Shown: piece by piece, positions 6,280 through 24,451 of the stretch
Layout of the letters: each line of letters begins with the position of its first letter
Numbering within the stretch: position 1 is the first letter of the stretch
Assembly (NCBI GenBank): GCA_964655825.1
Contig: CAZZPW010000002.1
Location: forward strand, 6,813-46,073
DNA from: an uncultured Candidatus Saccharibacteria bacterium
GTDB lineage: Bacteria > Patescibacteriota > Minisyncoccia > Phycocordibacterales > UBA918
DNA length: 39,261 bases
Reading direction: 5' to 3'
Notes under the pieces: generated by a model
What the model saw: only the letters and a program-made list of their open reading frames with translations
Databases searched by the model: none
Told to the model about the DNA's origin: nothing
Position numbers and translations under genes: made by a program

Positions 6280-7657
6280 CGAATAAATCAGTCGTACCAG
6301 TGTATCGTTCTACAAAGGCTTCCACGTCAAACTTTCGCTTAGCACCATTGAAATTCATATAGCGAATTTTGCCAAAGACTGGTCGCTCCGTCCAGGCGCG
6401 GTCATGCACCCCCGCAATCGACCACATCACCCCCACTACACCATTACTGTCGCGCCCATCAAGCTCGTAGCGGTCGTTTAAGGTGAGTGCAACCTCAATG
6501 GCGTACTCCGGGGTATTTGTCCATTCGAGTATCTTCTTAGCCCAGTACATACGACACCAGCCGTGCATCTTCCCTTCCCGGACCATCTGCAACTGCATCG
6601 CGTTCCAAAGCGGGTCGTGTGTTTCAGCCGCTTCGAATTCCTTAAAGGTGTATACGTACTCACGCTCATCTTCACGGTGCTCGGCCAAGGTCTTTTGTGC
6701 CCACTCGTGGGCACCATTAAGAGTATCGTACCCCTCGGTGTAGTAGACGTAATTATCGGTTAGTTCACGTCGGACAATCAGTTCCTCCAGAAACGCGTCT
6801 TTGTCCTCTCGGCGCGTACCCCGTTTCGCTTCCACCAGCAGTGCTACACGCTGCGCTGAGATGTTCCCCCAGCGTAAATACGGCGAGAGATTAGACAATA
6901 CCGACTCATTGGGGTCGTTACGTTTAGCGGCGTAATCGTTGATGCGGTCGCTCAGGAATTGCTCTAACACGCGGTGCGCAGCGGCTTCGCCGGGTGATAT
7001 CCAATCGGGGAGCGGCGCCTCGACCGAGACATTCCGAAACGACGCAATGGTTGCCCAATTATGGTCGGGTTTGGGGCCAGTATAGGCCGTCACAGGTTTT
7101 TGCAACGTGGGGTACTCCTGCAGAAATTCTTCTAAAACTTTGTGTACTTTGGGACGAAACGTATGGGCCGCAAATTCGGCTTTCGGGCTGGCTACCCAGC
7201 ACGGTATGATGTTGTGCGCGTCGACTTCCTCAGCCCGAATTGGTAGCCGCTCTGCGACTGCCGTGCGCCAATCTCGCACCGGTTGCAACGGATTAAAGTC
7301 AAAGACGACCCGGCCGGCCTGGTGTGTTTTACAAAACTCAGGAATAACCAATTCCCACTCGCCGCATACTACGTAAAAAGGGATATCTCGATTACGTACG
7401 TTTTGTTCGACCTCTTGCAACGACGCAATCATCCATTCGTTGTGGCGCCGAGAACCCTCGTTAAACATTGGACCGACCGCGAAGAGTACGAGCAAAGCTA
7501 CTCCCTGCTCCGCGGCTTGTTCGGCAGCGTGCAGGAGTGCCCAGTTATCTTGCACTCGCTGTTCACGAGCCATAACATATACCACCGGACCGTCACCACT
7601 CGACTGGTCATTGAGACACCGTACGCGTCTGGCATCAACGTTACTCATTGACGACAT
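6263..7657 (-). CDS. phr: deoxyribodipyrimidine photolyase, class II
   Basis: GPVVYVMAREQRVQDNWALLHA, VVFDFNPLQPVR and VDAHNIIPCW are class II CPD-photolyase blocks. 464 aa. An alternative start lies at 7648. Confidence 0.85.
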   Translation of the reverse strand: MSSMSNVDARRVRCLNDQSSGDGPVVYVMAREQRVQDNWALLHAAEQAAEQGVALLVLFAVGPMFNEGSRRHNEWMIASLQEVEQNVRNRDIPFYVVCGEWELVIPEFCKTHQAGRVVFDFNPLQPVRDWRTAVAERLPIRAEEVDAHNIIPCWVASPKAEFAAHTFRPKVHKVLEEFLQEYPTLQKPVTAYTGPKPDHNWATIASFRNVSVEAPLPDWISPGEAAAHRVLEQFLSDRINDYAAKRNDPNESVLSNLSPYLRWGNISAQRVALLVEAKRGTRREDKDAFLEELIVRRELTDNYVYYTEGYDTLNGAHEWAQKTLAEHREDEREYVYTFKEFEAAETHDPLWNAMQLQMVREGKMHGWCRMYWAKKILEWTNTPEYAIEVALTLNDRYELDGRDSNGVVGVMWSIAGVHDRAWTERPVFGKIRYMNFNGAKRKFDVEAFVERYTGTTDLFDAKTR

Positions 7658-7865
7658 ACTCTACGTCTCGCACACCATCCTCGGGTGGCATAATAATCCA
7701 CGCTAAGATATAAAACAGTATACCCGGTACAAAACCGGAGACAATCGTCACCAACACAAACGCTAAACGCCACAGTGTTACGTCATGACCAAAATACTTA
7801 GCCATACCAGCAATGACACCGGCTACCAGTTGATTAGATACATCTCGAGTTAATTTCTTTTCCAT
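7641..7865 (-). CDS. PspC domain-containing membrane protein
   Basis: KLTRDVSNQLVAGVIAGMAKYFGHDVTLWRLAFVL followed by one TM helix. The ORF track starts at a TTG (7880), but I prefer the ATG at 7865 (MEKKL). Confidence 0.7.
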   Translation of the reverse strand: MEKKLTRDVSNQLVAGVIAGMAKYFGHDVTLWRLAFVLVTIVSGFVPGILFYILAWIIMPPEDGVRDVEYVVNE

Positions 7866-7871
7866 ACATTC

Positions 7872-7877
7872 ATTATA
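7872..7877 (-). promoter_or_regulatory. -10 box TATAAT, 6 nt upstream of the pspC-like ATG
   Basis: The minus strand reads TTGTATAATGAATGTATG. A perfect TATAAT is followed by 6 nt and then the ATG at 7865. Confidence 0.4.
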
Positions 7878-8024
7878 CAAAAAATAACAACCATCATCAC
7901 TTTAGCTAATTTTATGAGCTTTAGGATGACGGAGATGCAAGGCGTGCAAGGAAAACTGAAGGAGACGTATCTCTATACGGTGACTAAAGTTTTACCGTAG
8001 CACAACGCAGCAGATTCGTTATAT

Positions 8025-8711
8025 CTAAAGCTCATAAATGACGTCTTTACGTTCGACGACCACCTTCCACCCCATCCGCTTTGCATGCTGAAACAGGGTA
8101 TTGTTAGGATTAAAACAAATCGGCATGGCCACCATATCGAGCATAGAAATGTCACTTTCCGTATCTCCGACCGCTACTGAGTTGTCGATTGTAAAATCCT
8201 CGCTCTCGAGTACGCGTTTAATAACATTAGCTTTGTTAGCGACTATCTCCTCATCATTAACCGCCCCCGTAAAGCGATCGGTGGGGCCAATTTCGTACAA
8301 TCGACCATACACCTTATCGAAACCGTACTCTGCACAAAAATCATCTAAAATGGTTTTAGGTGACTGCGAAATAGCAACCACATAGTAGTTCTGTTTCTTA
8401 AGCTTACTGATGAGGTCTCGAGTATACCGATACACGCGCTTCTGGTTATCAATTACAACCGACCGACCGGTATCGGCAAAATCACCGTAATGGACGCCTT
8501 TTATATGCTCCAAAAAAACCTGCACCATCGCTTCCAGATAGGCTTCGTAGGTGCCTTCGCGATTGTGCCACGCGCGATACTGCTTTTGATACCCTTCCCG
8601 AGCTTGTTCTGGAAAGAGCTCAGCGGCAATGAGAGCCTCTACCAACTCCACTAACAAACTAGAGCGAAAGACGGTTCCGTCTATATCAAGAAAGGCCACT
8701 TTCTGCTGCAT
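8025..8711 (-). CDS. HAD-superfamily hydrolase (subfamily IB, SerB-like)
   Basis: Motif I FLDIDGTVF and motif IV VAVGDTESDISML. The ATG at 8711 (MQQKVAF) is preferred over the GTG at 8729. Confidence 0.75.
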   Translation of the reverse strand: MQQKVAFLDIDGTVFRSSLLVELVEALIAAELFPEQAREGYQKQYRAWHNREGTYEAYLEAMVQVFLEHIKGVHYGDFADTGRSVVIDNQKRVYRYTRDLISKLKKQNYYVVAISQSPKTILDDFCAEYGFDKVYGRLYEIGPTDRFTGAVNDEEIVANKANVIKRVLESEDFTIDNSVAVGDTESDISMLDMVAMPICFNPNNTLFQHAKRMGWKVVVERKDVIYEL

Positions 8712-8753
8712 ACAGCTCAAGTGTACCACCCTTTATAAAATCTACCAGCAAAG

Positions 8754-9863
8754 TTACCGACTTCGTAAACGCCGTACCGCCACCTCAGCCAAGGCACCGG
8801 CAGCGATAACACTAAGCGCGAACACCACCATCAGCCCTACCACCGGTAGTAGCAAGAGTACCTGTAAGACCACTACACCGAGTAAAATTGCAAAGGGTTG
8901 CAGGGTGGGCGCGCCTCCGAGTAACCGCCACAATAGTACACCAAGTATCATTGGTGCAATACTGTAGCTTAACGCGAGCACAACTAACAGGAGACCGAGA
9001 CCACTCAGGCCGACCACCAAGCCAAGGACCGTCGCCAACAGAAAGACGGCTACCAACGGGCCGGCAAACACTATCGCAACACCAATAAACGAGGCGCGCA
9101 CACTCTGCGTCAGCGCTTGGCTCACGACCGCGCTCATAAAACTACGACCCAGTAAGTACAGAACGAGACTACCGAAGAGCATTATTAAAAGCGGCAGTAC
9201 TCGTTCGGTCACGTTCACCGAATCCTCTAGTATAGGGAGTGAGCTGGCCACCAGCTCGCCATCAATTACGGCGTCGGGCGCCCGCACCAGTTCGTTTGCA
9301 CTACGGTACGTGACATCTCCACGCACTGACGCGCGTGCACCCAACGTAAGTCCCTGGCGGGCCGTCACTTGTACCACCTCACCCACCGTGGTATCGATGC
9401 GCAACCGTTCAGACTGTCCGAGCACCGACCCGCCAACCGGCCCATTAATCTCCCCTTCTCCACCGAAGAAGTACACATCGCCAGCAATCGTCGCTGAGGG
9501 TAATACGGTGAGCATGCCGCCAATCACAAACACATCTCCACCCACGTCCCCGGCTACTTGCATCTCTCCACCGATAATACGTAGGTCGTCACCAATATCA
9601 CCATCGACATCAACCCGACCCCCTAAGACGGTTAAATCAGCATCTACGTTGCCCTGGGCCGTTACATCACCGCCAACGGCATACATATCACCCGCAATAC
9701 GCCCGGTATGCACGATACTACCACCGAGGGCATAGAAATCGCTCTCTACTACCTGGTCGGTAGCAATTACTACTGACTCACCGGTCCGAACTACCGTCTC
9801 TGCCTGCACGGCTACCGGTACAAAAACGGAGTATAGGAAGATGAGGAGAATACCGCGCCGCAT
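8754..9863 (-). CDS. secreted bactofilin-like (polymer-forming, beta-helical repeat) protein with a C-terminal multi-TM domain
   Basis: Signal peptide MRRGILLIFLYSVFVPVAVQA, then degenerate GGxVxVxGxVxGDL repeats (GGDVTAQGNVDADLTVLGGRVDVDGDIGDDLRIIGGEMQVAGDVGGDV), then 4-5 TM helices. The start at 9863 lies 4 nt after the upstream stop. The 9974 extension is rejected. Confidence 0.55.
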   Translation of the reverse strand: MRRGILLIFLYSVFVPVAVQAETVVRTGESVVIATDQVVESDFYALGGSIVHTGRIAGDMYAVGGDVTAQGNVDADLTVLGGRVDVDGDIGDDLRIIGGEMQVAGDVGGDVFVIGGMLTVLPSATIAGDVYFFGGEGEINGPVGGSVLGQSERLRIDTTVGEVVQVTARQGLTLGARASVRGDVTYRSANELVRAPDAVIDGELVASSLPILEDSVNVTERVLPLLIMLFGSLVLYLLGRSFMSAVVSQALTQSVRASFIGVAIVFAGPLVAVFLLATVLGLVVGLSGLGLLLVVLALSYSIAPMILGVLLWRLLGGAPTLQPFAILLGVVVLQVLLLLPVVGLMVVFALSVIAAGALAEVAVRRLRSR

Positions 9864-13273: not shown

Positions 13274-14509
13274 CTACTTTCCCCCACTATCGGGAATACC
13301 GTTGGCGTCTATAATGTCTTTGTATACCCACGCACTCGGGCGAATCGTTCGCTCGAGCGTGTCGTAGTTAATGGCGACCAACCCAAAGCACTTCTGGGTG
13401 CCTAAGGCCCACTCATAGTTGTCGATCAGGCTCCAGTACATATGCCCCCGCACATCAATGCCGTCATCAAGCGCGCGTTTGGTGGCTCGTATTTGTTCGG
13501 TGATGTAGGCCGCCCGTCGCGTATCCGTTCGGTCAGCCAAACCTGCTTCAGAGATAAATATCGGCTTACGGTAGCGTGTTAGTAATTTGAGCGAGCCGTA
13601 TATGCCTTCAGGATATATATCCCAATCCATATCAGTCTTATCATATTCAGCTCGATCACCGAACTTTTTATGGAAGTAGTAATTTAAGCCGATTGAATCG
13701 ATTGTATGTCGTACCCGTCGCATATATACATGCGTCCACATCCGGTTTGCCACCCACGCACGAAGCATATTGTAGGGATTCCAGTTCGCATGAAAATAAA
13801 TCACATGCTTTACAACGCCCACATCAAGATTAGGTTGACTGGCTTTAATCAATGTATACGCTTCGTTGTGGGCACGTGCCAGGTTACGGAGTACGCGTCG
13901 GTAGAGAAATAGCGGGCGAATGCCACGATTTGCTCGGGATTCGTATGTTCGACCCGAGTTTGTGATCGAAACGAAGTCGGTAGCGGCAAAACGTTTAAAT
14001 GGAGGCCAACTACCTCGCAGCCACCCATTACTGGCATACACATTTGGCTCGTTCATAGTCGAGAAGTGCGTACAGAGGTCGCCCAACTCCTTAGCCACAA
14101 AGGCACAGTAGCGAGCGAAGACTTGTGGCGCGTCGGCCCGTTCAAATCCACCCCGTTTGGCAAACCACTGGGGCAGCGTAAAGTGCCAGAGCGTTACAAA
14201 CGGTTCAATATTGCGAGCCCGCAAGGCTTTCAAGACTGCTCGGTAGTGCTCAATTTCGGCAAAATCCCACTTCCCTTCTTCTGGCTCAATGCGCGCCCAT
14301 TCAATCGAAAACCGGTGGGCATTATGACCAAGCTCTTTAGCAATATCAAAATCTTCTTCGTACCGGTGGTAGTGATCGGCTAAACGGCCAGCCGGTGGCA
14401 CCTTCCCATCCCGTGCGGCTTGCGCCCAATCGGTATTCTCGTTCCAGCCTTCGACTTGGTACGAGGCGGTGGCGGCACCCCAATAAAAATTTTTTGGAAA
14501 TGATTTCAT
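13274..14509 (-). CDS. GH1 beta-glucosidase
   Basis: FPKNFYWGAATASYQVEGW N-terminal signature, acid/base TMNEPNVY, nucleophile region FISEAGLAD. The ATG at 14509 is preferred over the TTG at 14515. Confidence 0.9.
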   Translation of the reverse strand: MKSFPKNFYWGAATASYQVEGWNENTDWAQAARDGKVPPAGRLADHYHRYEEDFDIAKELGHNAHRFSIEWARIEPEEGKWDFAEIEHYRAVLKALRARNIEPFVTLWHFTLPQWFAKRGGFERADAPQVFARYCAFVAKELGDLCTHFSTMNEPNVYASNGWLRGSWPPFKRFAATDFVSITNSGRTYESRANRGIRPLFLYRRVLRNLARAHNEAYTLIKASQPNLDVGVVKHVIYFHANWNPYNMLRAWVANRMWTHVYMRRVRHTIDSIGLNYYFHKKFGDRAEYDKTDMDWDIYPEGIYGSLKLLTRYRKPIFISEAGLADRTDTRRAAYITEQIRATKRALDDGIDVRGHMYWSLIDNYEWALGTQKCFGLVAINYDTLERTIRPSAWVYKDIIDANGIPDSGGK

Positions 14510-14640
14510 ACACAATTTTTATTGGCTCTTACAGAGGCAGTACACCCTGTCATCATTTTCTGCGAAAATGCTAGGCACGGTCTTGCAAAAGCGTCCCACG
14601 CTTTCTCACCCCACAAGAATCCTTCAGGAAATTTGTTCAT
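14506..14640 (-). CDS. doubtful 44-codon upstream ORF starting with a GH1-like N-terminal module
   Basis: MNKFPEGFLWGEKAWDAFARPCLAFSQKMMTGCTASVRANKNCV. Its TGA overlaps the GH1 ATG (ATGA), and its ATG overlaps the TGA of the upstream repeat ORF (ATGA). Confidence 0.25.
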   Translation of the reverse strand: MNKFPEGFLWGEKAWDAFARPCLAFSQKMMTGCTASVRANKNCV

Positions 14641-14963
14641 ACATTGTTGTCTTTAGGAGGTGCCGGCTGATTACAGCAGCGGTTCAGGTTATCAATATTT
14701 TTATTCAAAAACAGTAGGCAACCTCTTGCGACAGTCCCCCGCTGTCTCTGCTTACAGCAGCGGTTCAGGTTGTCGCTACTATTGCTCGTTACCTCGCATA
14801 GTAGCAGGCAACCTCTTGCGACAGTCCCCCGCTGTCTCTGCTTACAGCAGCGGTTCAGGTTGTCGCTACTATTGCTCGTTACCTCGCATAGTAGCAGGCA
14901 ACCTCTTGCGACAGTCCCCCGGACTGTCTCACCCCAGTAAAAATTTTCAGGGTACGTAGTCAT
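14637..14963 (-). CDS. doubtful 108-codon ORF running through the tandem repeats (Cys-rich 30-aa units)
   Basis: MTTYPENFYWGETV followed by 2 x RGTVARGCLLLCEVTSNSSDNLNRCCKQRQ and a 27-aa variant unit. The repeat periods of 81 and 90 nt keep the frame. A -10 box lies 6 nt upstream of the ATG. It could equally be a structured RNA leader. Confidence 0.3.
   Translation of the reverse strand: MTTYPENFYWGETVRGTVARGCLLLCEVTSNSSDNLNRCCKQRQRGTVARGCLLLCEVTSNSSDNLNRCCKQRQRGTVARGCLLFLNKNIDNLNRCCNQPAPPKDNNV
14671..14931. repeat. tandem repeat, three units (81, 90, ~90 nt) with internal hairpins
   Basis: TTACAGCAGCGGTTCAGGTT occurs at 14671, 14752 and 14842. The stretch 14716..14831 is identical to 14806..14921. 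Hairpins lie at 14768..14813 and 14820..14836 in unit 2, and again 90 nt further on. Confidence 0.95.
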
Positions 14964-14969
14964 GTCTTC

Positions 14970-14997
14970 AGTATAGCTTACCAAATTAGGGTACCAA
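14970..14997 (-). promoter_or_regulatory. candidate sigma70-type promoter inside the 3' end of the upstream gene
   Basis: On the minus strand: TTGGTA (14997..14992), a 16-nt spacer, TATACT (14975..14970), 6 nt, then the ATG at 14963. Confidence 0.4.
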
Positions 14998-15613
14998 TAG
15001 CGGCTGTACACGCTACACCAAAGAGTATGTACTCTACTCCCGACACCCAATTCAAATTGTAATACCAATACGGAACCCAATCATCAACACCCCACCGTGT
15101 GATGTATTGCGGCAGTTCATCTGCCGACCAGCTTATGATGGGTCGCAACCGACGCTCTTCAACCGACAATCGCTCCCAATCTCCGTCTACTTGTAATAGG
15201 TGTTTTAAACGATTTACACGCCGACCAAGTACCTTATAGTTTCGGTTTGAGAGTGGCCATAATACCTTTAGTCCCCAGCCTGTTCCGTATAAATCATTTA
15301 TCAAATGAAGTAAGACAGCGAAGGTTAGTACCCAGCCCCAGTATCCAACAAACCAGACTGCTAGAGCCATAAGACCCACCGCAAAAACTGGGTAGTGCAA
15401 AAAGGTTCTATGGTCAGCACTATGCACTGCTGAAGCAGCAACTCGACCTCGTCGCAATAGCTCAGGTAAAGCATCAATGTCTGGTACGTGCGAAAGGAGA
15501 AGACCAATTAGAAAATGCCACCACAGGACGTCGACACCGGTCACCCAACTCGCGAGCAATACTGCAAATATGCCGTTTGCCCAGTCAGCGAGTAATACAA
15601 CAACCTGCTTCAT
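14978..15613 (-). CDS. membrane-bound metal-dependent hydrolase, YdjM/DUF457-like
   Basis: 211 aa, multi-TM, with conserved-looking His/Asp positions (LLLSHVPDIDAL, ADHRTFLHYP, LLHLINDLYGTGWG). Confidence 0.6.
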   Translation of the reverse strand: MKQVVVLLADWANGIFAVLLASWVTGVDVLWWHFLIGLLLSHVPDIDALPELLRRGRVAASAVHSADHRTFLHYPVFAVGLMALAVWFVGYWGWVLTFAVLLHLINDLYGTGWGLKVLWPLSNRNYKVLGRRVNRLKHLLQVDGDWERLSVEERRLRPIISWSADELPQYITRWGVDDWVPYWYYNLNWVSGVEYILFGVACTAAIGTLIW

Positions 15614-15615
15614 AG

Positions 15616-16407
15616 CTATGACGATGCTGGCACTCCGGCGTAGCAGGCAAGTATAAATGATTCACTCAAGCGCACATGATACTGATACTGTCCAGCAACG
15701 TACTGCCCACCGCACTCATCAAGCACAGCCTCATCGGCTACCGGACCATAGACAGAAAATCCATCTCGGGTGTAGCCAATCACTTGTGTCATCGATACAT
15801 TGGCATATCGCGCAGCGTCACTATTCAGTAAGGGTTGTCCGGCAGTTGTTATCCCAATTAATGTATCGGGTAGACAGCTCGTAAAGGTTGAGCGGACCGT
15901 GCGCACCGGCAGGGAGAGAAAAAGCTCCTCACGCACGACTGTTTCCGTGGTCGACCCAGTTTGCACCATCTCGGTTACTCGTTCGGTGACAACCCGCTGC
16001 CCTTCAACCATTTCGAGCTGCGCTTGTGCTGGCCAGTTAGCTAACAGCCTGGAGGGTTGTGGTCCAGTGCACCACGTCACGGTGCGTGTACCGGTAAAAG
16101 TTGGCGTATTGGTTGCTGCTTCTGCTTGCAGTTGCTGCGCGGTTTGGTCAACCGAAGTAAACACAGGTGGCGCATCGTCCAAGTACCCGTCACCGGCGGC
16201 GAGTCGCGCCCGCAATTCGGCCCATCGAGTCGAGCGCTCATCAGAGGCGGACGGTGTAATAGCAGTGCTCTCCACCGGTGCACTCGACGTGAAAAACAGC
16301 TCCTGCACCTCGGCAACCGCCCGCCCGGAGAAACCCGTGTAGCTGGCACCAATCACGACAAAGCTTAGAACAAGAATATATAACAAAAAATCCCGCGTCC
16401 GTATCAT
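15616..16407 (-). CDS. membrane-anchored hypothetical protein, possibly a degenerate YHYH-domain protein
   Basis: N-terminal TM helix. The C-terminal LDECGGQYVAGQYQYHVRL resembles the D-x-CGGH...YHYH motif, with GGH changed to GGQ and YHYH to YQYH. The ATG at 16407 is preferred over the GTG at 16413. Confidence 0.4.
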   Translation of the reverse strand: MIRTRDFLLYILVLSFVVIGASYTGFSGRAVAEVQELFFTSSAPVESTAITPSASDERSTRWAELRARLAAGDGYLDDAPPVFTSVDQTAQQLQAEAATNTPTFTGTRTVTWCTGPQPSRLLANWPAQAQLEMVEGQRVVTERVTEMVQTGSTTETVVREELFLSLPVRTVRSTFTSCLPDTLIGITTAGQPLLNSDAARYANVSMTQVIGYTRDGFSVYGPVADEAVLDECGGQYVAGQYQYHVRLSESFILACYAGVPASS

Positions 16408-16446
16408 ACCCACATCATAGCATTGACGCTTGCGAGCAGTATACGA

Positions 16447-17733
16447 CTACCGCACAGTTACCCCTTCGGGTACCTTTTCTGGGTCGACCAAAAAACCTTT
16501 TAAGTCGCGACGACCAATAATGATAGGGAACCGGAGGTGACTTCGTTCCGTGTAGCTTGCAATCGTTTTAATGGTCTTACCTTTCATTTTGAACGCAAAC
16601 TTTGCGGTCTTACGCTTTTGTCGACCACTCCCAGAGCGAACGTGGACGAGCTTGTCGTGTTCGTCTAAGCCAAGCTCGTGCACCAAATCGACGTCGATTG
16701 ATGAGCGAAACGCTCCGGTGTCGATTTTCGCACGGACACTTTTCTTTTTATTTGGTCCCATAATAGTAATACGTTCGATGACACCAAGCGTGCGGTCAGC
16801 GACATCAACCGCTTCAAGTGAACTATCAGCAAACAATTGTTGGGCCAACTGAATAGCTCGCTCCGTGGTCGGCACCTCAAGATTCGACACACGCTCTAAG
16901 CGCGTCCGTAACGATGAGCGATTCGCAACCTGAATGGAAAGCCCAGGCCGAGCGTTAACCTCGAGCACTAGCGGTCCTCGCTCCTCATCGAGAATAATAT
17001 CAATGCCGACAAACCCGAGACGCGAGGCTCGTTGCGCCTCGATTGAAACCCGTAAGATTTCTTCCCACTGCGGTAATTTAATACCGTGCAACTTAAGTTT
17101 TGTGCCCGGAACGTACCGGACAGTATCGTTATGAGCTGCCGCGTAGGTAGTGATACCAGTCCGCATATCGATACCAACGCCGAGGGCACCAAGGTGCAGA
17201 TTGGCTTTACCATCAGACTGTTTTGTCGGTAAGCGAAGCATCGCCATCACGGGAATACCATTACAGACAATCACCCGTACATCGGGCACACCACCGTGCG
17301 TGTACTTCTTAAACATAGAGTGCACCCGCACCCGCTCTTCCACAAAAGCGTTATCAGGTAAGTTGTCGAGTGAGTGTGCCCCATCGAGAATACCGAAGAT
17401 TTCTGACTCAAGGTCGGCTACTCCAAAATCTCGCTTAGCTGAACGCCCACTGGTACCATCCCACTTGCCGACTATCGTAATTCCACGGCCACCATAACCA
17501 TGCGCTGGCTTTAACACAAACGCGCGTGGGAGTGTCTCCCAGTTGTAGTGACGCGCGGTGTCGAATGAGGTAAATGCGGCAATCAGCCCGGTGGTCGGCA
17601 CACCTGCATCTAATAAGACTTGCTTGGTGGCTAATTTATCATCGGCACGCAGCTTATACGTACGCCGATTAAATTTGCGAATGTAGAGGTAGTTACGGGC
17701 ATTGAGACCCAACACTGTCTGACTGAGTGCCAT
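16447..17733 (-). CDS. RimK-like ATP-grasp amidoligase (alpha-L-glutamate ligase-like) fused to a C-terminal retropepsin-like domain
   Basis: LGLNARNYLYIRKFNRRTYKLRADDKLATKQVL, VLKPAHGYGGRGITIV and GIDIILDEERGPLVLEVNARPG are ATP-grasp features. The C-terminal ~110 aa carry VRAKIDTGAFRSSID (the D-T-G-A signature). Confidence 0.8.
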   Translation of the reverse strand: MALSQTVLGLNARNYLYIRKFNRRTYKLRADDKLATKQVLLDAGVPTTGLIAAFTSFDTARHYNWETLPRAFVLKPAHGYGGRGITIVGKWDGTSGRSAKRDFGVADLESEIFGILDGAHSLDNLPDNAFVEERVRVHSMFKKYTHGGVPDVRVIVCNGIPVMAMLRLPTKQSDGKANLHLGALGVGIDMRTGITTYAAAHNDTVRYVPGTKLKLHGIKLPQWEEILRVSIEAQRASRLGFVGIDIILDEERGPLVLEVNARPGLSIQVANRSSLRTRLERVSNLEVPTTERAIQLAQQLFADSSLEAVDVADRTLGVIERITIMGPNKKKSVRAKIDTGAFRSSIDVDLVHELGLDEHDKLVHVRSGSGRQKRKTAKFAFKMKGKTIKTIASYTERSHLRFPIIIGRRDLKGFLVDPEKVPEGVTVR

Positions 17734-17742
17734 AGTACAATA

Positions 17743-18663
17743 CTAATCTGTTACAAACTCCCGAAACCGAAAGACCTCAGTTAAGCGCAGGCCAAAGTAT
17801 CGACCAATCATAATATTCAGTGGTATGACGAGTAACACTAACTCGGGATAGACAATCAGGTAATTGCGCACCACTTCGCTCGTTGCTAAGAAGTACCCGA
17901 GTAAACCGAGCATCAGTGTCGTTGAAGTAATCGTCAGTGTTTCCGTTAAACTCTTGTGCAGTTGTACCGATACGATAGAGTCACCGAGCAAAATCAGAAT
18001 TAGAATCGGGAAAATTGACAAACTTAAGACTTGCTCGTACTCAAAGAAGAGGGCTGCCGTTAGAGCGGCAAAGACAAAAATGGAGAGGATCAAGAGCGAC
18101 AGCGAGCGTTTCGGGTAGAACATCATCCGGACATTAGAGACCAGCATTTTGGCTACGTACGACGCGAGTACGACCGCTCCCAAGATAAACAGACCTACCC
18201 CCACACCAACCGACACGAAGGCAAATGCTAAAGCAATCGGGACGAGCATGTCGACCGTTGGAAGGCCAATCACCACCCGGGTAAAACTAATACAGAGCGC
18301 CAGTATCGGCGTAAGCAGAATCAAGAATATTGTATTTGCAGGAATACCCACAAAAATTGCCTCCTGGACCCAGTACGCGAAGAAATTAAAAAACGTGAGT
18401 TCCGGCAGCGGTCGTTTCTCAAGCTCAGCAAAAATCGCCTGCTGTGCCTCTTCTCGTTCGGGCTGCGTAGGGTCGTTAGCTTGTGTGGTTACCGCTTCAC
18501 GTTGCGAGGTAAGCTCGGCGGCAGTGTTAGATGCTGCGAGTACCGGCGAAGCGCTTGTTGCCGTACTGGTGGCTACCGATGAGGTCGCGGTCGTTGTTTG
18601 CGCGTATAGCGTTACCGCGCTCAAAAGAAAAAGGGCTACAGCCCCTCCGAATACATATTTCAT
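17743..18663 (-). CDS. 7TM membrane protein of the type associated with RimK-like ligases (no transglutaminase domain)
   Basis: Signal peptide MKYVFGGAVALFLLSAVTLYAQ, a Thr/Ser/Ala-rich spacer, about 7 TM helices, and a C-terminal GLRLTEVFRFREF. The ATG at 18663 lies 2 nt after the upstream stop. Confidence 0.55.
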   Translation of the reverse strand: MKYVFGGAVALFLLSAVTLYAQTTTATSSVATSTATSASPVLAASNTAAELTSQREAVTTQANDPTQPEREEAQQAIFAELEKRPLPELTFFNFFAYWVQEAIFVGIPANTIFLILLTPILALCISFTRVVIGLPTVDMLVPIALAFAFVSVGVGVGLFILGAVVLASYVAKMLVSNVRMMFYPKRSLSLLILSIFVFAALTAALFFEYEQVLSLSIFPILILILLGDSIVSVQLHKSLTETLTITSTTLMLGLLGYFLATSEVVRNYLIVYPELVLLVIPLNIMIGRYFGLRLTEVFRFREFVTD

Positions 18664-18665
18664 AA

Positions 18666-19937
18666 TTACCACTGTGGCAGAATTTCTAGAGTTTGTAAAG
18701 ACGTTACATGTCGGTTATTCAACGGGTCGAATTTACCTACGAACAGATGTGGGTACCGCTCGGGATGGTTAATCAGATACTCCCACATCTCCACGTTGCC
18801 TTCAAAGTACACCATACTCTTGGTGAGCACACAGCCCGTTGACTGCCCAGTAGTACCCCGAAAAATACGTCGACACACCTCCCAGGTCCGACGAATAATT
18901 GATTCCTCATCGGCATGTGGGTCGTGACTGTGGATTTGGTAGTAGGCTCGCATGAGTACAAATACCGAACGGAAATCACGTTCCTCACCATCAAGCCCGA
19001 GCGCGAGTCCGAGGGCAAGATAGCGGTCTTGTCCGTAGAATAAATCGGCTCCTTCAACTTGCTGCTGAGTATAACTCGCCAGCCCTTCTTCACCCTTAAG
19101 GTACCCGTCGAGCCCTATCGCTAATAACCGTAACGACTGCTGCGTACCGCGGTGTGCCCGAGTAGCATGGACACCAATTTCGTGAGCCGCAATAGCCTCT
19201 GTTGCTACGTGCGTCAGGGGTCGGTGTCGATTCGCCAGATGTTCATCGTTAGGCACATACACCTGTCGTTTTGAGGGATTAACCGAAAAAATCACGCGTC
19301 GACCGGTAGTATCAACCACCACTTGCCAGCCCTCGAGAGCGTGTTCAGCAATAATCTCTTCAAATACCTTTGCTACCTGCGTGCTGGTGAGAGCTGGTTC
19401 ATTACTCGCTCGTAGGGGTGGCAGCACCTCTGTTGGCAATGGCTCTGTTGGGCGTGCTACGTGCCCAAGTGTGTCGGAGAGTTTATCTAACGCCTGTTCG
19501 GCAGTACTATTGTTGGGGGTCTGTGCTAATGCGTGGTGTACAATTTGGGCAAAGTAGGTGGTATTAGGGCTCCCGTAAATCAGTTTTGACGTGGCGCAAA
19601 ACCGCTCGTCGTCCAATTGAGCAGCTGCGTCAAGCAATTCAAAACGCAACTGCTGGTTCTTCAGTTTAGCCCGGTACAATTGCACCACCACCTCGGGGGC
19701 AGAACTCGATTCGACCACATCCACGCACTCAGCCAGCGCGGCCGTCGCCGCCGACATGTCAAAAACCGCGGGTTCGAGTAAAAATTTTGGGTTTTCTACC
19801 TCATCAGTAATGAAGCGGACAAATTCCCGCCGGTCAACACTAATCATCGCCTGCAACACTTCCTCATCATTCACACTATCAAGTGCCGTGCGTAGTGACG
19901 CAAAAAGATCAGCATCGAGTACCGGATGTGCGCTCAT
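18666..19937 (-). CDS. DUF1704-family (QEGLA-motif / MATCAP-like) metallocarboxypeptidase
   Basis: HEIGVH (HExxxH) at AIAAHEIGVHATRAH, and a QEGLA-like LKGEEGLASY motif. 423 aa. Confidence 0.7.
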   Translation of the reverse strand: MSAHPVLDADLFASLRTALDSVNDEEVLQAMISVDRREFVRFITDEVENPKFLLEPAVFDMSAATAALAECVDVVESSSAPEVVVQLYRAKLKNQQLRFELLDAAAQLDDERFCATSKLIYGSPNTTYFAQIVHHALAQTPNNSTAEQALDKLSDTLGHVARPTEPLPTEVLPPLRASNEPALTSTQVAKVFEEIIAEHALEGWQVVVDTTGRRVIFSVNPSKRQVYVPNDEHLANRHRPLTHVATEAIAAHEIGVHATRAHRGTQQSLRLLAIGLDGYLKGEEGLASYTQQQVEGADLFYGQDRYLALGLALGLDGEERDFRSVFVLMRAYYQIHSHDPHADEESIIRRTWEVCRRIFRGTTGQSTGCVLTKSMVYFEGNVEMWEYLINHPERYPHLFVGKFDPLNNRHVTSLQTLEILPQW

Positions 19938-19946
19938 ACCTACAAC

Positions 19947-20660
19947 CTAGATACCAAACTGAACACCAACATCGGCGGCCGTCGTTGGCGTACCGGTTGC
20001 TGTTGAGGTACTGGTCGGCGTCACGGGCGAACCATTAGCTGCAGCAATCGCAGCGATAATTTGGCTGGCAAAGTCATCATATGATTCAAAGGCCATTCGT
20101 TCTCCGTTAAGGGTAAACGTAGGAGTGCCCGTAAAGCCTGCGTCGCGCGCTTCGGCAAACTGGGCACGTACATGCTCTTCAATCACAGATGCCCCCAGAT
20201 GGCGGCGGAAGGTCGGTACATCGAGTCCAAGTTCTTCGGCGTACCCAATAAAAAAGGCGGTGGCGTTCGGGGCACTCGACCACGCTTGTTGGTTTGCAAA
20301 CAGGAGGTCGTGCATGCCCCAGAAGGCATCCTGTTGAGCAGCTGCTTCAGTAGCCCGGGCAGCCGGAATAGCCATCGGGTGAATGGTTACCAATGGGAAG
20401 TGACGATACTCAACCCGAATATCATCGCCGTACTCCGCTACTAACGTATCAACCACGGTTGCTGCGGCAGCACAGGCAGGGCACTGAAAGTCACTGTACT
20501 TGATGAGTTCGACGGCTGCGTCAGGATTACCCTTCACGTTGGGTTCGATAACGACACCCTCGTTTGCCTCCTCAGCCGCTTGATTCGATAACCAAAAGGC
20601 TCCAGCAAACACCGCTATAATCGCTAGCACAATGAGCACCCCTTTGTTCTTCTTTAGCAT
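19947..20660 (-). CDS. DsbA-family thiol:disulfide oxidoreductase, membrane anchored
   Basis: N-terminal TM anchor, CxxC active site in YSDFQCPACA, and GTPTFTLNG, the cis-Pro loop region typical of the DsbA/thioredoxin fold. Confidence 0.8.
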   Translation of the reverse strand: MLKKNKGVLIVLAIIAVFAGAFWLSNQAAEEANEGVVIEPNVKGNPDAAVELIKYSDFQCPACAAAATVVDTLVAEYGDDIRVEYRHFPLVTIHPMAIPAARATEAAAQQDAFWGMHDLLFANQQAWSSAPNATAFFIGYAEELGLDVPTFRRHLGASVIEEHVRAQFAEARDAGFTGTPTFTLNGERMAFESYDDFASQIIAAIAAANGSPVTPTSTSTATGTPTTAADVGVQFGI

Positions 20661-20766: not shown

Positions 20767-21501
20767 ATGGCCAAGCGCCCCTTCAAACGAAAAATCAAAC
20801 GTAAGCGTCACGGCGCCAGCTTTTGGGACCATGAGTACACCGAGGGTGGGCACCTCAAGTTGTCTGACGAAGCCGCCGAAGACCTCAAGAAATTCTGCCG
20901 CTGGCTCCTCCGGCAACACGGTAATGCGTACCTTAATCCCACCACACAGGTAGCTGACTTCGGCTGTGGCAATGGCCGCAACCTTGTCTACCTGGCCGAA
21001 ACCTTTGGTGTCCACGGTGTGGGGTACGACGTCTCAGCCGCGGCTATAAAGATTGCTCAATCCGCGTCAACTGCATATACCCTCAGCTACGAAGCGCGGA
21101 GTATTGCTGGCACCTTCCCCGCTATACCCGATGAATCACAAAGTATCGTGCTCGATATGATGACATCACATTTTCTCTCTGCAGCACAGCGAAAAACCCT
21201 CAAATCAGAGCTGCTGCGGGTCCTTAAACCGGGTGGCTACCTGTTTATGAAAACACACCTCGGTGATGGTGACTTGCACACCAAACGGCTCCTGGCAGAA
21301 GCTCCAGCGAAAGAGCCGCAGACCTACATCCACCCAGTTATGGGAGTGCCCGAACACGTCTATTTCGAAGCTGACCTACGCGACTTCCTCGAACCTGACT
21401 TCACGATTGAAAAAGTGTATCGCTCACACAAGCACATTAGCCGCGGTCGAGCTCGTAAACGTCGGACCATCACCGTCTACGCCCGTAAACCAGAGTTTTA
21501 G
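20767..21501 (+). CDS. class I SAM-dependent methyltransferase with basic termini
   Basis: Motif I VADFGCGNGRNLVYLA. Lys/Arg-rich N-terminus (MAKRPFKRKIKRKRHG) and C-terminus (SRGRARKRR). Confidence 0.75.
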   Translation: MAKRPFKRKIKRKRHGASFWDHEYTEGGHLKLSDEAAEDLKKFCRWLLRQHGNAYLNPTTQVADFGCGNGRNLVYLAETFGVHGVGYDVSAAAIKIAQSASTAYTLSYEARSIAGTFPAIPDESQSIVLDMMTSHFLSAAQRKTLKSELLRVLKPGGYLFMKTHLGDGDLHTKRLLAEAPAKEPQTYIHPVMGVPEHVYFEADLRDFLEPDFTIEKVYRSHKHISRGRARKRRTITVYARKPEF

Positions 21502-22775
21502 GCTAGTGGAATGGTGACCGTAAACGTTGTCCCTGCATCTTGGCGCGACTGGACCGTAATCTGTCCACCAAGCATCTCGACTGACTGTTTAACGATATAT
21601 AACCCGAGACCGGTCCCCTGCGCTCGCTCTTTGCGGGCATTACTTGCCCGATAAAATTTACTGAACAGGTTTTCAAGTTCATTACTTGGAATACCAATAC
21701 CCGAGTCAGCAACCCAAAACGTTAGTGTTCGGCCGTTTATATTGTACCCAACGTGCAGACGCCCGTTAGCTGGGGTGTACTTAGCTGCATTGGAGACTAA
21801 GTTGCTCGTAACAATATGCAGCAGTCGGCGATCAGTTTGCCACACCAATGGTTGCGGTGGTGTCTCGAGGGCAACCTGAAGCTGTTTTTGTGCAATTGTA
21901 CCCTCAAATTCATCAATAATTTCTTGCAGGTACTGACTGAGATCAATTTCCTGCATATCAGCCTGGAACGTCCCTGTCTCCAGCTGAGAGACGCTCAAGA
22001 AATCATCAATGAGCGCCTTCATTCGCTGCGCATTTGCCGTAATCTTATCTGCGTACCGAAGTTGTTTCTCGGTAAAGCCGCTCGTATCACCGTGCGTCAT
22101 CAACTCGGCATTCCAAGTAATAGCGGCAATTGGCGTGCGTAGTTGGTGCGACGCCAAGGCGACGAATTCGGACTTGGCCTGGTCGATTTTCTTTTGTTGC
22201 GTGATATCAACCAAGGTTACTAATGCCTCTTCATCACTGACGCCACTGACAAAGACCGATAGTCGAACCCACCGCTGGTGTCCGTCAACCGTCACTAAGA
22301 TACTCTCTTGGTCCTGTATAGAGACGCCTTGGAGTACCTTTGAGCGCACCATTTGCCACTCGTCAGTGCCCGCAGCATCAAATAGCTGGTAGAGATTGAG
22401 GGTAGTGACCCGGTCGGTCTGAGTCGCCAATAGACGAATCGCTGCTAGGTTAGCTTTAGTGATGCTGCCATCGCTCGTCACTTTAACGTACGGTACGGGG
22501 CTGTGTTCAAACAAGTGCGCAAATTCGGCTTGTGACGCCTGGAGTGCATCGGCTGCGTGCAGCTTAGCTGCGTAACGCTTGGGAAGAGCCTGTAGTCGAA
22601 ACCACAGGTACCCCATCATACCCGTGAGACAAAGGGCGAGCGTGAGCGCCGGCGGAAATACTGTTAACTCAATACTCAATAGCCACCATACCCCAAACAG
22701 AAGTGCTGGGAGTAGCACAAAAAGCCACGCAACGCGGAGCCAGTACAGGAGATACGGGGGTAGGAACAGCTGCAC
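21498..22775 (-). CDS. sensor histidine kinase (2 TM, PAS-like, HisKA, HATPase_c)
   Basis: H-box FVALASHQLRTPIAAI, N-box NLVSNAAKYT, G-boxes VADSGIGI and GTGLGLYIVK. GTG start at 22775. The 3' end overlaps the convergent methyltransferase gene by 4 nt. Confidence 0.85.
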   Translation of the reverse strand: MQLFLPPYLLYWLRVAWLFVLLPALLFGVWWLLSIELTVFPPALTLALCLTGMMGYLWFRLQALPKRYAAKLHAADALQASQAEFAHLFEHSPVPYVKVTSDGSITKANLAAIRLLATQTDRVTTLNLYQLFDAAGTDEWQMVRSKVLQGVSIQDQESILVTVDGHQRWVRLSVFVSGVSDEEALVTLVDITQQKKIDQAKSEFVALASHQLRTPIAAITWNAELMTHGDTSGFTEKQLRYADKITANAQRMKALIDDFLSVSQLETGTFQADMQEIDLSQYLQEIIDEFEGTIAQKQLQVALETPPQPLVWQTDRRLLHIVTSNLVSNAAKYTPANGRLHVGYNINGRTLTFWVADSGIGIPSNELENLFSKFYRASNARKERAQGTGLGLYIVKQSVEMLGGQITVQSRQDAGTTFTVTIPLA

Positions 22776-22790: not shown

Positions 22791-22845
22791 GCTCCCCTTC
22801 TCCCCGCGACTCGACTACGCACAATAGCCGATGGCGGATAGCCTG

Positions 22846-22854
22846 TGGTACTAT
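22846..22854 (+). promoter_or_regulatory. extended -10 element (TGgTACTAT), 9 nt before the response-regulator ATG
   Basis: TGGTACTATACACGTACTATG. It is divergent from the kinase promoter, and the two -10 boxes are about 55 nt apart. Confidence 0.4.
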
Positions 22855-22863
22855 ACACGTACT

Positions 22864-23241
22864 ATGAAAAAGACTGTGCTTATTATTGAAGACGAGGCTG
22901 ATATTCGCGAGGCGATGGTTGATTACCTCAGCGAGAGTGACTATAAAGTGCTCGCAGCTAGTGATGGTATTACCGGGCTCCAGACTGCCTTGGCCGAACA
23001 CCCGGACCTCATACTACTCGATTTAATGCTCCCCGCGATGAATGGCCAGGAAGTGCTGCGCAAACTCCGCGAAGACCGCTGGGGTAAAAATGCGGTCGTG
23101 ATTATCATGAGTGCACAAGACGATCTTTCCAATATTGGGATGGCCTACGAAAGCGGTGTGACCGAATACATCATGAAATCTAATGCCTCACTCGAGGAAC
23201 TCTCTAAAAAAGTCCGCGAAACGCTCTTGGCTAACAGCTAA
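22864..23241 (+). CDS. single-domain response regulator (CheY-like receiver)
   Basis: MKKTVLIIEDEADIRE, phospho-acceptor region DLILLDLMLPAMNG, and conserved Lys region YIMKS. No output domain. The ATG at 22864 is preferred over 22831. Confidence 0.85.
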   Translation: MKKTVLIIEDEADIREAMVDYLSESDYKVLAASDGITGLQTALAEHPDLILLDLMLPAMNGQEVLRKLREDRWGKNAVVIIMSAQDDLSNIGMAYESGVTEYIMKSNASLEELSKKVRETLLANS

Positions 23242-23242
23242 A

Positions 23243-24451
23243 CTACTCTGGCATCGTCGTGAGTGTGACTGGTATCACTAACGATTCACCATTACGCCAC
23301 ACCGTCAGACTGGTGGTATCACCAGGCCTATAGGCACGCATGACCGTAGCAAGCTGTCGACCGTCGCGTAACGCCTCGTCATCAATCGCTGTAATAATGT
23401 CGTTCTCGCGCAAACCAGCCTGCGCCGCGGGCGAGCCGGGAATAACCGCAAGGTCTGTCATACGCTCACCGCGCACCACCAACACGCCGTAATCGATGGG
23501 TAGATTATTGCGTTCGACTATGGCATCGGTAATCGGGACATACCGAACACCGAGGTACGGCCGGGCAATAGCTCCGGTCGCTAAGACACTGTCGAGCACT
23601 TCTGCTACCACCTGACCTGGGAGGGCAAACCCAATATTTTCACTGTTACCAGCCACTGCCACATTTACTCCAACCACTTCTCCCGAACTATTTAAAAGTG
23701 GGCCACCAGAATTACCCTGGTTAATTGCCGCATCGGTTTGAATCAGACCGTCAAGTGTCTCGAAGCGCAACCCTGCTTGCGCCGTAATATTACGGGCAAG
23801 ACCAGACACCACCCCTACCGAAACACTGTTAGGAAACTCCGCCAGCGCATTGCCAATCGCAATCACCGGTTCACCCAACACTGGTTCCTTACGAGCAAAC
23901 GCTAAGTGCGTGAACGTAGTTGCTGGCGCGGTAACTTGTAACACAGCGATATCGAGCACTGGGTCACGCGCGATAACCTCGACCGGGTACGTGGTACCGT
24001 CGTTGGTAACGACGGTGTACTCCACCCCGGTCTGGTCTACCACGTGGCGGTTGGTAATGAGGTGACCCGATTCACTCACAAAAAAACCCGTCCCGCCGCC
24101 AATCTCACGTTCTTCGGTACCAACCTGTCGCTGCCGGGGCACGTTAAAAGCGCCCCAAAACGAACCAAATGGACTCACCTGTTCGAGGTAGCGCTCGTAG
24201 AGGGGCACCTCAGCAGTAATCACAATCGAGGCTACGGCCGGTAGTGCCTCAGCAACGACACTCGGTATATCATTCTCCGGCGCAGCGGGCGCGGTCAACC
24301 GGTCGATATTAGACGAGACCGCCGCCGCTTGCTGATTTTCAAATTGCGGTACGTACGCCATTTGAAACCACCACAAACCTGCCACCAGTACGATAGCGGA
24401 AACAGCAATAGTAATACCTATATTAAGCAATAAAAATCTTATGCCGGTCAT
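23243..24451 (-). CDS. HtrA/DegP-family serine protease with a PDZ domain
   Basis: N-terminal TM helix. Catalytic triad contexts ITNRHVV, DIAVLQV and GNSGGPLLN. C-terminal PDZ-like region (GSPAAQAGLRENDIITAID). Confidence 0.85.
   Translation of the reverse strand: MTGIRFLLLNIGITIAVSAIVLVAGLWWFQMAYVPQFENQQAAAVSSNIDRLTAPAAPENDIPSVVAEALPAVASIVITAEVPLYERYLEQVSPFGSFWGAFNVPRQRQVGTEEREIGGGTGFFVSESGHLITNRHVVDQTGVEYTVVTNDGTTYPVEVIARDPVLDIAVLQVTAPATTFTHLAFARKEPVLGEPVIAIGNALAEFPNSVSVGVVSGLARNITAQAGLRFETLDGLIQTDAAINQGNSGGPLLNSSGEVVGVNVAVAGNSENIGFALPGQVVAEVLDSVLATGAIARPYLGVRYVPITDAIVERNNLPIDYGVLVVRGERMTDLAVIPGSPAAQAGLRENDIITAIDDEALRDGRQLATVMRAYRPGDTTSLTVWRNGESLVIPVTLTTMPE

Follow-up and report, generated by a model that had tools for sequence, protein, structure and literature searches.

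The window, by which is meant the whole stretch of 39,261 nucleotides analysed here (contig CAZZPW010000002.1 of an uncultured Candidatus Saccharibacteria bacterium), carries a cassette of three tightly packed minus-strand genes for a MATCAP/DUF1704-type metallopeptidase, a seven-transmembrane (7TM) protein, and an ATP-grasp ligase fused to a retropepsin-like aspartic protease. Judged by the families of its parts, the cassette is a Patescibacteria variant of the rloABC system of Pseudomonas aeruginosa, which consists of the secreted retropepsin RloA, the inactive-transglutaminase/7TM protein RloB, and RloC, an ATP-grasp protein of the cytoplasm (Lormand et al., mBio 2025, PMC12239564). In the core, an RloC-type ligase comes after a 7TM homologue of RloB's membrane half, and the two form one unit. 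We consider it probable, at roughly 60%, that the Patescibacteria form of Rlo is a machine at the membrane by which an acidic peptide is both made and processed. At the level of predicted proteins, the family membership of the parts, their intact catalytic motifs, and the expected cytoplasmic location of ligase, protease and MATCAP-type enzyme are well established. The genes and their functional elements are as follows.

18666..19937, minus strand: MATCAP/DUF1704-type metallopeptidase, 423 aa
19167..19184, minus strand: HEIGVH, predicted zinc-binding/catalytic motif (H252/E253/H257) of the metallopeptidase, from translation
19077..19091, minus strand: EEGLA (E283-A287), probable third zinc ligand of the metallopeptidase, from translation
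17743..18663, minus strand: RloB-type 7TM protein, 306 aa from the ATG at 18663
17764..17805, minus strand: tail motif G-x3-G-L-R-x2-E-x2-R-F (GRYFGLRLTEVFRF) in the C-terminal tail of the 7TM protein, residues 287-300
16447..17733, minus strand: ligase-retropepsin fusion, 428 aa
16885..17697, minus strand: ATP-grasp ligase domain (PF14397, ATPgrasp_ST), residues 13-283
16450..16788, minus strand: retropepsin-like aspartic protease domain, residues 316-428, from profile and fold search
16714..16722, minus strand: predicted catalytic Asp-Thr-Gly (D338-T339-G340), from translation

The open reading frame (ORF) list and translation place the three genes at 16447..17733, 17743..18663 and 18666..19937. 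Only 2 nt separate the MATCAP stop (18666) from the 7TM ATG at 18663, and 9 nt separate the 7TM stop (17743) from the ligase start (17733); an alternative GTG start at 18672 would extend the 7TM protein by three residues (17743..18672). A spacer of 9 nt also lies between the stop of a DsbA-like gene (19947) and the MATCAP start (19937). This layout agrees with a sequence-only reading of the window, whose coordinates for the three genes, their spacers and the upstream DsbA-like gene were confirmed; the motifs quoted there (KPAHGYGGRGI, GKANLH, LEVNARPG, DTG, HEIGVH, EEGLA and GRYFGLRLTEVFRF) all translate at the expected positions.

The ligase domain matches PF14397 with an E-value of 3.8e-62 (210.5 bits vs a cut-off of 31.4). 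The name 'alpha-L-glutamate ligase-like' given to it by the sequence-only reading is borne out by this match together with that to TIGR02291, the latter below its cut-off. All ATP-grasp signature residues (K75, E132, D151, R153, K176, N178, D245, E258 and N260) are invariant throughout 38 homologues. Residues 7-302 align with the whole of a 314-aa Legionella RloC-type 'alpha-L-glutamate ligase-like protein' (36% identity, E 4e-68), which stops where the linker of the window ligase starts, and tblastn gives 43% identity to an Aeromonas copy. A single-sequence search of the PDB matched the C-terminal Mg/ATP block of RimK structures alone, LEVNARPGL being aligned there with MEVNASPGL. More than 100 full-length homologues of the fusion protein were found at 59-100% identity.

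Fusion of a retropepsin-like domain to the ligase, likewise proposed from the letters alone, is what profiles, hhalign and Foldseek agree on. The Zn_protease/RimB-like profile (27.7 bits, cut-off 27) and the Asp_protease_2 profile (24.6 bits, cut-off 24.3) are both barely passed. A 20-sequence profile of residues 300-428 matches RloA2 (9G59, E 2.6e-4), Lpg0085 (2PMA) and RloA (9G58), the alignment spanning the AK(M/L)DTGA and T(D/N)R...P(F/L)L(M/L)G blocks of RloA2 and Lpg0085, and hhalign pairs the domain with a 152-aa Legionella RloA-type protein at a probability of 95.7% (E 8.6e-9). With an AlphaFold2 (AF2) model of the domain (predicted local distance difference test, pLDDT, 74), Foldseek ranked Ddi1, the EIAV and foamy-virus proteases, RloA and RloA2 first, two-lobed pepsin-family proteases standing lower in the same list. 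K336, D338, T339, G340 and A341 are invariant in the 38 homologues, as is the block R397...P403...G407-R408-x-D410. The domain (residues 316-428) is strongly basic, with a net charge of +12 and 25 Lys or Arg among 113 residues. RloA cuts runs of at least eight Glu, and its positively charged channel permits the binding of poly-Glu (PMC12239564). The basic charge of the fused domain matches that channel and is therefore counted in favour of an acidic chain as its substrate. The 428-aa protein has no hydrophobic segment; being fused to the ligase and devoid of a signal peptide, the protease is therefore predicted to be cytoplasmic.

The 7TM protein matches Pfam 7TM_transglut (PF14402, E 2.8e-22), and its match to the NCBIfam RloB profile is limited to positions 312-508, the membrane half; it is 26% identical to residues 312-501 of a 508-aa Legionella RloB-type protein (E 7e-12). 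Hydropathy and translation describe an N-terminal signal or anchor, an acidic linker of about 70 residues rich in Thr, Ser and Ala, about seven hydrophobic segments, and a basic cytoplasmic tail. The coverage of the RloB profile indicates that the transglutaminase ectodomain is absent, the low-complexity linker preceding the transmembrane (TM) core, and a 7TM module lacking its transglutaminase part is indeed what the sequence-only reading had described. Within the tail motif, G287, G291, R293, E296, R299 and F300 are conserved at 95-100% in 80 sequences ranging from the candidate phyla radiation (CPR) to Legionella RloB, and we infer that the motif is a candidate docking site for the ligase. 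The last residue of the protein varies (Lys in 32, Asp in 9 and Glu in 7 of the 80 sequences). The 7TM C-terminus was considered as an acceptor of glutamylation; as the terminal residues are not conserved, that idea is unsupported.

The extracellular part differs widely among relatives. Many CPR 7TM ORFs are about 220 aa long and consist of the 7TM module with almost no ectodomain. Long CPR versions of about 495-534 aa also occur (L079 4358..5920, L083 4182..5804, L041 3627..5114, L065 2199..3752 and L086 4412..5959, the last not translated), and in the two that were scanned, L079 and L083, an N-terminal PKD domain and an unassigned region replace the transglutaminase domain. Varying ectodomains upon an invariant TM core and cytoplasmic tail are what one would expect of a sensor-coupled enzyme, in which the 7TM ectodomain perceives an external cue and switches the ligase or protease while the product, for example an osmolyte or a Glu store, stays inside the cell. 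The cytoplasmic location of both peptidases would suit such a device, and Glu is an osmolyte while the rlo phenotype is osmotic. However, in Pseudomonas the RloB/RloC-dependent product is acted on by proteases of the periplasm, and many CPR versions have almost no ectodomain; we regard this explanation as very unlikely.

That the 7TM protein and the ligase work together is suggested by a natural fusion. Plasmid CP007061.1 of the haloarchaeon Halobacterium sp. DL1 contains, at about 106.1-107.85 kb (L093 5164..6918) and among transposase genes, an unannotated ORF of 584 aa in which 7TM_transglut (residues 56-248) ends in the tail motif, and this runs straight into an ATPgrasp_ST ligase (residues 291-562); the ORF has no retropepsin. 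By a Rosetta-stone fusion of this kind the ligase is located where the 7TM protein ends in the cytoplasm, and, read from the sequence, the fusion argues that the two form a complex.

The spread of the fused ligase-protease was determined by a scan of one genome per species with two peptide patterns, both within the retropepsin domain. At least 600 stretches matched, and 405 of those listed were confirmed by tblastn as the fused form; since one gene can give up to two stretches, this corresponds to at least about 200 genomes. For neighbourhood counts 80 species-level loci were kept, with ligases 40-69% identical to that of the window. According to record titles they include the Parcubacteria (Kaiser-, Nomura-, Portnoy- and Andersenbacteria, Spechtbacterales) and the Microgenomates (Roizman-, Levy-, Woese-, Shapiro- and Chisholmbacteria), and named homologues come from Kaiserbacteria, Nomurabacteria, Pacebacteria and Paceibacterota. 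The fused ligase-protease is thus a widespread Patescibacteria protein and no local oddity. Some metagenome-assembled genomes (MAGs) titled Gammaproteobacteria, Pseudomonadales or Bathyarchaeia (L029-L031, L050, L063, L070 and L077) also hold a ligase of the CPR fused type; either wrongly labelled bins or horizontal transfer may account for this.

In 79 of the 80 loci the gene directly upstream of that for the fused ligase is a 7TM_transglut gene, and the single exception, L042, begins at a contig edge. A MATCAP-family gene directly adjoins this pair in 16 loci and lies about 5 kb off in a seventeenth. Of 70 evaluable loci, 11 have it directly upstream of the 7TM gene, each of them with a ligase at least 54% identical to that of the window, and a different MATCAP of canonical type stands directly downstream of the ligase in five of 75 (L027, L042, L046, L054 and L066). 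Among the downstream copies the match in L027 is weak (E 6.5e-4); the only one scanned, that of L046, scores 210 bits, lies much nearer to the Pfam consensus, and carries HEIETH and TEEGLA. The trio persists where MATCAP identity has fallen to 47% (L097) and 34% (L095); the flanks of L095 are unrelated to those of the window, and in L008 the trio is intact within rearranged flanks. Conservation of the trio, which the sequence-only reading proposed to test, accordingly holds in part: the trio recurs (L008, L095, L097), while the conserved core is the pair. The invariant unit is the 7TM protein with the ligase-protease, and MATCAP and additional ligases are lineage-specific accessories.

Recurrence of this gene order across many divergent genomes is far beyond chance, and this bears on the simplest alternative, namely that unrelated genes were packed side by side by compaction of a small genome. 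CPR genomes are gene-dense, and the DsbA-like gene and a 265-aa ORF at the other end of the cassette are apparently such bystanders; but the near-constant adjacency of 7TM and ligase genes, the fusions of ligase with protease and of 7TM with ligase, and the recruitment of MATCAP at two positions effectively refute compaction as the explanation. Two observations on individual loci may be added. In L008 (10211..11493, a Paceibacterota MAG on the same contig as L071) gene calling divides the ligase-protease into two ORFs that overlap, of 181 and 248 aa; a frameshift, a pseudogene or an error of assembly could explain this. An apparent triple fusion of 7TM protein, ligase and protease in L085 was rejected, as its ORF reads through a run of N.

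Downstream of the fused ligase, 44 of the 80 loci have one or two further ATP-grasp genes. One type, of about 338 aa, resembles the ATP-grasp part of cyanophycin synthetase, with 259 bits for TIGR02068 at profile positions 204-473, and the other, of about 503 aa, is PRK06524-like; in L036, for example, such genes occupy 7305..8819 and 8823..9836. They hint at a multi-ligase peptide pathway in those lineages.

Neighbouring genes and phenotypes also bear on the alternative of envelope-precursor modification, according to which a wall precursor linked to a sugar or lipid receives an amino acid or short peptide from the ligase, the 7TM protein flips or positions this precursor, and the peptidases edit the product. 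Pseudomonas rlo mutants show cell-shape defects and sensitivity to cell-wall antibiotics (PMC12239564); the Pfam label of PF14397, 'sugar-transfer associated', and the variable 7TM ectodomains (transglutaminase-like, PKD or linker), which suggest binding of an envelope ligand, point the same way. A gene resembling a penicillin-binding protein (PBP), so identified by reading of the sequence with no profile search, recurs as a neighbour in 29 loci; it lies several kb off, in one clade, beside RuvC/YebC/RuvB-like ORFs, so that ordinary synteny is likely. The RuvC-, YebC-, RuvB- and PBP-like ORFs, named from their printed sequences without a profile search, were for this reason rejected as partners and taken as clade-level synteny. 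Moreover, no glycosyltransferase is consistently adjacent, and RloA and RimB are specific for runs of Glu while the fused domain keeps their basic character. Modification of an envelope precursor is therefore an unlikely account, less so than sensing.

The accessory metallopeptidase falls, as the sequence-only reading had it, into the DUF1704/MATCAP family, with a PF08014 match over residues 46-420 (E 1.6e-21, 77.2 bits vs a cut-off of 27) and both HExxxH and EEGLA present. In 31 homologues H252, E253, H257, E283, E284, G285 and A287 are invariant, and a profile of these homologues matches human MATCAP (7Z5G/7Z6S, E 1.7e-6) at the blocks HEIGxH (HEIGTH in human), EEGLAS and RG.T...Y(L/F)xG; a single-sequence search of the PDB with the MATCAP-like protein found no match, so that the profile was needed. 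EEGLA corresponds to the 'EEG' metal-binding motif of TMCP1/MATCAP (PMC10499314). On the TIGR02421 QEGLA equivalog the window protein scores 75.1 bits, far under the cut-off of 338.65 and with EEGLA in place of QEGLA, whereas proteobacterial QEGLA proteins score 354-470 bits; it is therefore placed in a separate subfamily. An exhaustive profile search returned 3278 representative clusters with E-values up to 1e-3, and 590 with values up to 1e-30. As neither the MATCAP-like enzyme nor the ligase has a hydrophobic segment, both should be cytoplasmic. Both peptidases of the cassette are thereby placed in the cytoplasm and not in the envelope, with which the sequence-only reading had tentatively associated the substrate. 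The MATCAP gene is an accessory and not a core component.

Pairing of this family with ATP-grasp ligases is not confined to the Patescibacteria. Proteobacterial replicons carry a triad of N-formylglutamate amidohydrolase, a QEGLA/MATCAP protein of 622-663 aa and a GshB-like 'glutathione synthetase', as in L090 4460..8204, L091 4451..8213 and L089 5110..7101. Vibrio sp. HDW18 has the amidohydrolase and MATCAP domains fused in one protein, and in Aminobacter and Roseateles the GshB-like ligase follows the QEGLA/MATCAP gene (Alpha- and Betaproteobacteria; plasmids and chromids). A MATCAP-family peptidase is thus paired with an ATP-grasp ligase in three independent arrangements. No description of this link was found in searches of the full-text literature. 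Neighbourhoods of this sort were probably predicted for the first time by Iyer et al. in Mol Biosyst in 2009.

For the acidic-peptide machine that we favour, the following course of events can be proposed. The ligase would dock on the 7TM protein's invariant tail in the cytoplasm and, driven by ATP, would add amino acids stepwise at a carboxyl terminus. The added residues would most likely be alpha-linked Glu, given the analogy with RimK and the poly-Glu specificity of RloA and RimB. The fused retropepsin, which has to pair with a second copy to complete an active site, would cut long acidic chains internally, and it may also stimulate the ligase, as RimB does RimK. The 7TM protein would export the product or present it at the cell surface. 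This role is suggested by Pseudomonas, in which a triple rloA protease mutant dies in hypo-osmotic medium and deletion of rloB or rloC rescues it, that is, their loss suppresses the loss of periplasmic proteases (PMC12239564). The MATCAP-type enzyme would be an optional third activity in its clade, a carboxypeptidase that trims acidic C-termini residue by residue and thereby might recycle Glu or reset the acceptor.

The same ingredients could serve a protein-tail writer and eraser, in which a Glu tail is added to the C-terminus of one specific protein and removed by the retropepsin and MATCAP, the protein being regulated in this way. RimK and RimB do exactly so on ribosomal protein S6, and a RimBK hybrid exists; relatives of MATCAP act on C-terminal protein tails, and both peptidases here are cytoplasmic, as is the ligase. 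However, the ligase is of RloC type and not of RimK type, the invariant partner is a membrane protein and not a soluble target, and the most obvious acceptor, the C-terminus of the 7TM protein, is not conserved. In Pseudomonas, moreover, the substrate must enter the periplasm, and a poly-acidic substrate encoded by the genome was not found there (PMC12239564). A protein tail is for these reasons doubtful, though it is the most plausible of the alternatives. Of the add/remove system suggested by the sequence-only reading, the juxtaposition of ligase and peptidases fits what is known of the relatives RimK/RimB, RloA and MATCAP, while nothing demonstrates a C-terminal tail on a protein; a free or exported peptide of poly-alpha-Glu type is at least as likely a product.

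Several points weigh against the acidic-peptide machine. The TIGR02291 match (residues 5-302, E 1.4e-78) reaches 264 bits, below the cut-off of 314, and the RimK family model TIGR00768 gives 59.9 bits against a cut-off of 143.4, so that the ligase falls outside that family. To our knowledge, there is no biochemical datum for any RloC-type ligase, the amino acid and the class of acceptor included. The PF14397 family bears the Pfam name 'sugar-transfer associated', and the extra ATP-grasp ligases of many CPR loci imply that the product may exceed poly-Glu in complexity. As the Pseudomonas protease is periplasmic and both peptidases here have neither signal nor TM segment, a scheme of 'export then degrade' is not directly transferable. 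As to the MATCAP-type enzyme, 63 of the 80 loci have no such gene nearby, nor has L009, the closest species-representative genome among the listed matches (69% identity), and members of the same subfamily are solitary at 35% (L096) and 31% (L006) identity. Finally, a full-length AF2 model of the MATCAP-like protein (pLDDT 92.6) retrieved nothing from the PDB by Foldseek at E <= 0.001, MATCAP itself included; the best matches, an M32 carboxypeptidase (E 0.01, TM-score 0.24) and minigluzincins (E about 1), are all weak. The assignment as a metallopeptidase therefore rests on profiles and motifs, and of the fold searches called for by the sequence-only reading, that with the retropepsin domain retrieved the expected fold and that with the MATCAP model gave no significant PDB match.

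The genes around the cassette provide context.

19947..20660, minus strand: DsbA-like thioredoxin-fold protein with N-terminal anchor (Thioredoxin_4 and DSBA profile matches)
15616..16413, minus strand: 265-aa Cys-containing exported protein with faint YHYH similarity, outside the module

From dsbA (20660) to ydjM (14978) all genes run in the same direction with gaps of at most 33 nt, the 265-aa ORF beginning 33 nt 3' of the ligase gene, and a methyltransferase gene on the opposite strand diverges from this run. The DsbA-like gene is probably co-transcribed with the cassette and is taken as context only. The 265-aa ORF is found 3' of the ligase only in the closest clade and accompanies DsbA in L008/L071; both were considered as cassette members and rejected, since there they lie about 60 nt apart and about 4 kb from the intact trio. 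A DsbA-like gene occurs again in the distant L063, about 170 nt upstream of the 7TM gene. A promoter scan gave nine promoter-like sites vs 9.0 expected by chance, terminator-like matches fall within genes, and Rfam and tRNA scans found no Rfam family and no tRNA anywhere in the window. Between ydjM (14978..15613) and a GH1 glycosidase gene (13274..14515), 2.4 repeats of a 90-nt unit, 98% identical, lie at 14716..14930 and create spurious repetitive ORFs on both strands. Just upstream of the cassette operon, the minus strand encodes a PAS histidine kinase (21498..22775) and an HtrA-like PDZ protease (23243..24451), and between them the plus strand encodes a stand-alone response-regulator receiver protein (22831..23241). 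The rlo genes of Vibrio are under the control of a two-component system (PMC12239564).

The Rlo core is thus widespread in ultra-small Patescibacteria, in a form that is stripped down, without transglutaminase, and hard-wired, with the protease fused. In Pseudomonas the genes for RloB and RloC influence tolerance of antibiotics, the formation of biofilms and the shape of the cell (PMC12239564). The natural fusions imply that the 7TM protein's cytoplasmic tail is where the ligase works and that the protease acts on the ligase or together with it, and they are compact constructs for biochemistry. The recurrent pairing of MATCAP with ATP-grasp enzymes suggests a role in bacteria for a family that is known from tubulin biology alone, and a possible origin of the eukaryotic writer/eraser pair. 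In its boldest form this would make the Patescibacteria cassette a minimal bacterial 'glutamylation code' machine, and the bacterial MATCAP/ATP-grasp operon pairing the antecedent of the eukaryotic TTL/TTLL-MATCAP writer and eraser; this we regard as a tentative proposal that is probably too bold. If true, the CPR cassette would be the simplest system for learning what RloB/RloC-type proteins make and export. The main value of the findings lies in the fusions and the MATCAP-ligase pairing, which set concrete, testable constraints on an unsolved mechanism.

The sequence-only reading held the combined architecture to be biochemically uncharacterised, but systems of its kind are known from rloABC, described in 2025, and from the active RimBK hybrid. 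The closest comparison is with rloABC, represented here by a Legionella plasmid (L092) and Aeromonas (L094); NCBIfam matches of the cassette bear the names RloA2/RloA3 and RloB. Shared are an RloC-type ligase, a 7TM module with the tail motif, a basic DTG retropepsin, and the position of the 7TM gene directly upstream of the ligase in a single operon. In rloABC, however, the protease stands by itself as a protein that has a signal peptide and is secreted, whereas here it is the C-terminus of the ligase and is predicted to be cytoplasmic; the 7TM protein of rloABC carries an inactive transglutaminase ectodomain, in place of which the window has its low-complexity linker of about 70 aa. A MATCAP-type gene is added here, unlike in rloABC (Aeromonas L094 has none within 6 kb), and the hosts are Patescibacteria vs Pseudomonas and other Gammaproteobacteria.

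RimB, the second comparison, is a poly-Glu endopeptidase that raises the ATPase activity of RimK about fourfold and is required for synthesis of poly-alpha-Glu, and a natural RimBK hybrid is proteolytically active (Little et al., J Biol Chem 2025, PMC11957791). The cassette shares with these systems a cytoplasmic ATP-grasp ligase that is physically coupled to a retropepsin-like endopeptidase. In the RimBK hybrid the RimB part is N-terminal (residues 1-163; PMC11957791), whereas the protease here is C-terminal (residues 316-428), and the ligase here belongs to the ATPgrasp_ST/TIGR02291 branch and not to the RimK family. The opposite domain order and the different ligase branch suggest that the fusion arose independently of RimBK. 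A 7TM partner is obligatory here, unlike for RimK and RimBK.

For the metallopeptidase, the proteobacterial QEGLA (TIGR02421) loci likewise show a MATCAP-family peptidase beside an ATP-grasp amide ligase, but they differ in the QEGLA subfamily, in an extra N-terminal region (an FGase match in Vibrio), in a PRK12458 ligase, and in having neither 7TM protein nor retropepsin. The MATCAP/TMCP enzymes of eukaryotes take C-terminal Tyr and Glu off acidic tubulin tails and deglutamylate them (PMC10499314). With these (7Z5G, 7Z6S) the window protein shares the Pfam family and the zinc site made of HExxxH and EEG. They are very distant, the motif blocks alone being alignable, and the bacterial partners share an operon and act on a substrate that is not tubulin; as the eukaryotic enzymes work opposite the ATP-grasp ligases TTL/TTLL, so here, too, an ATP-grasp ligase is paired with the peptidase.

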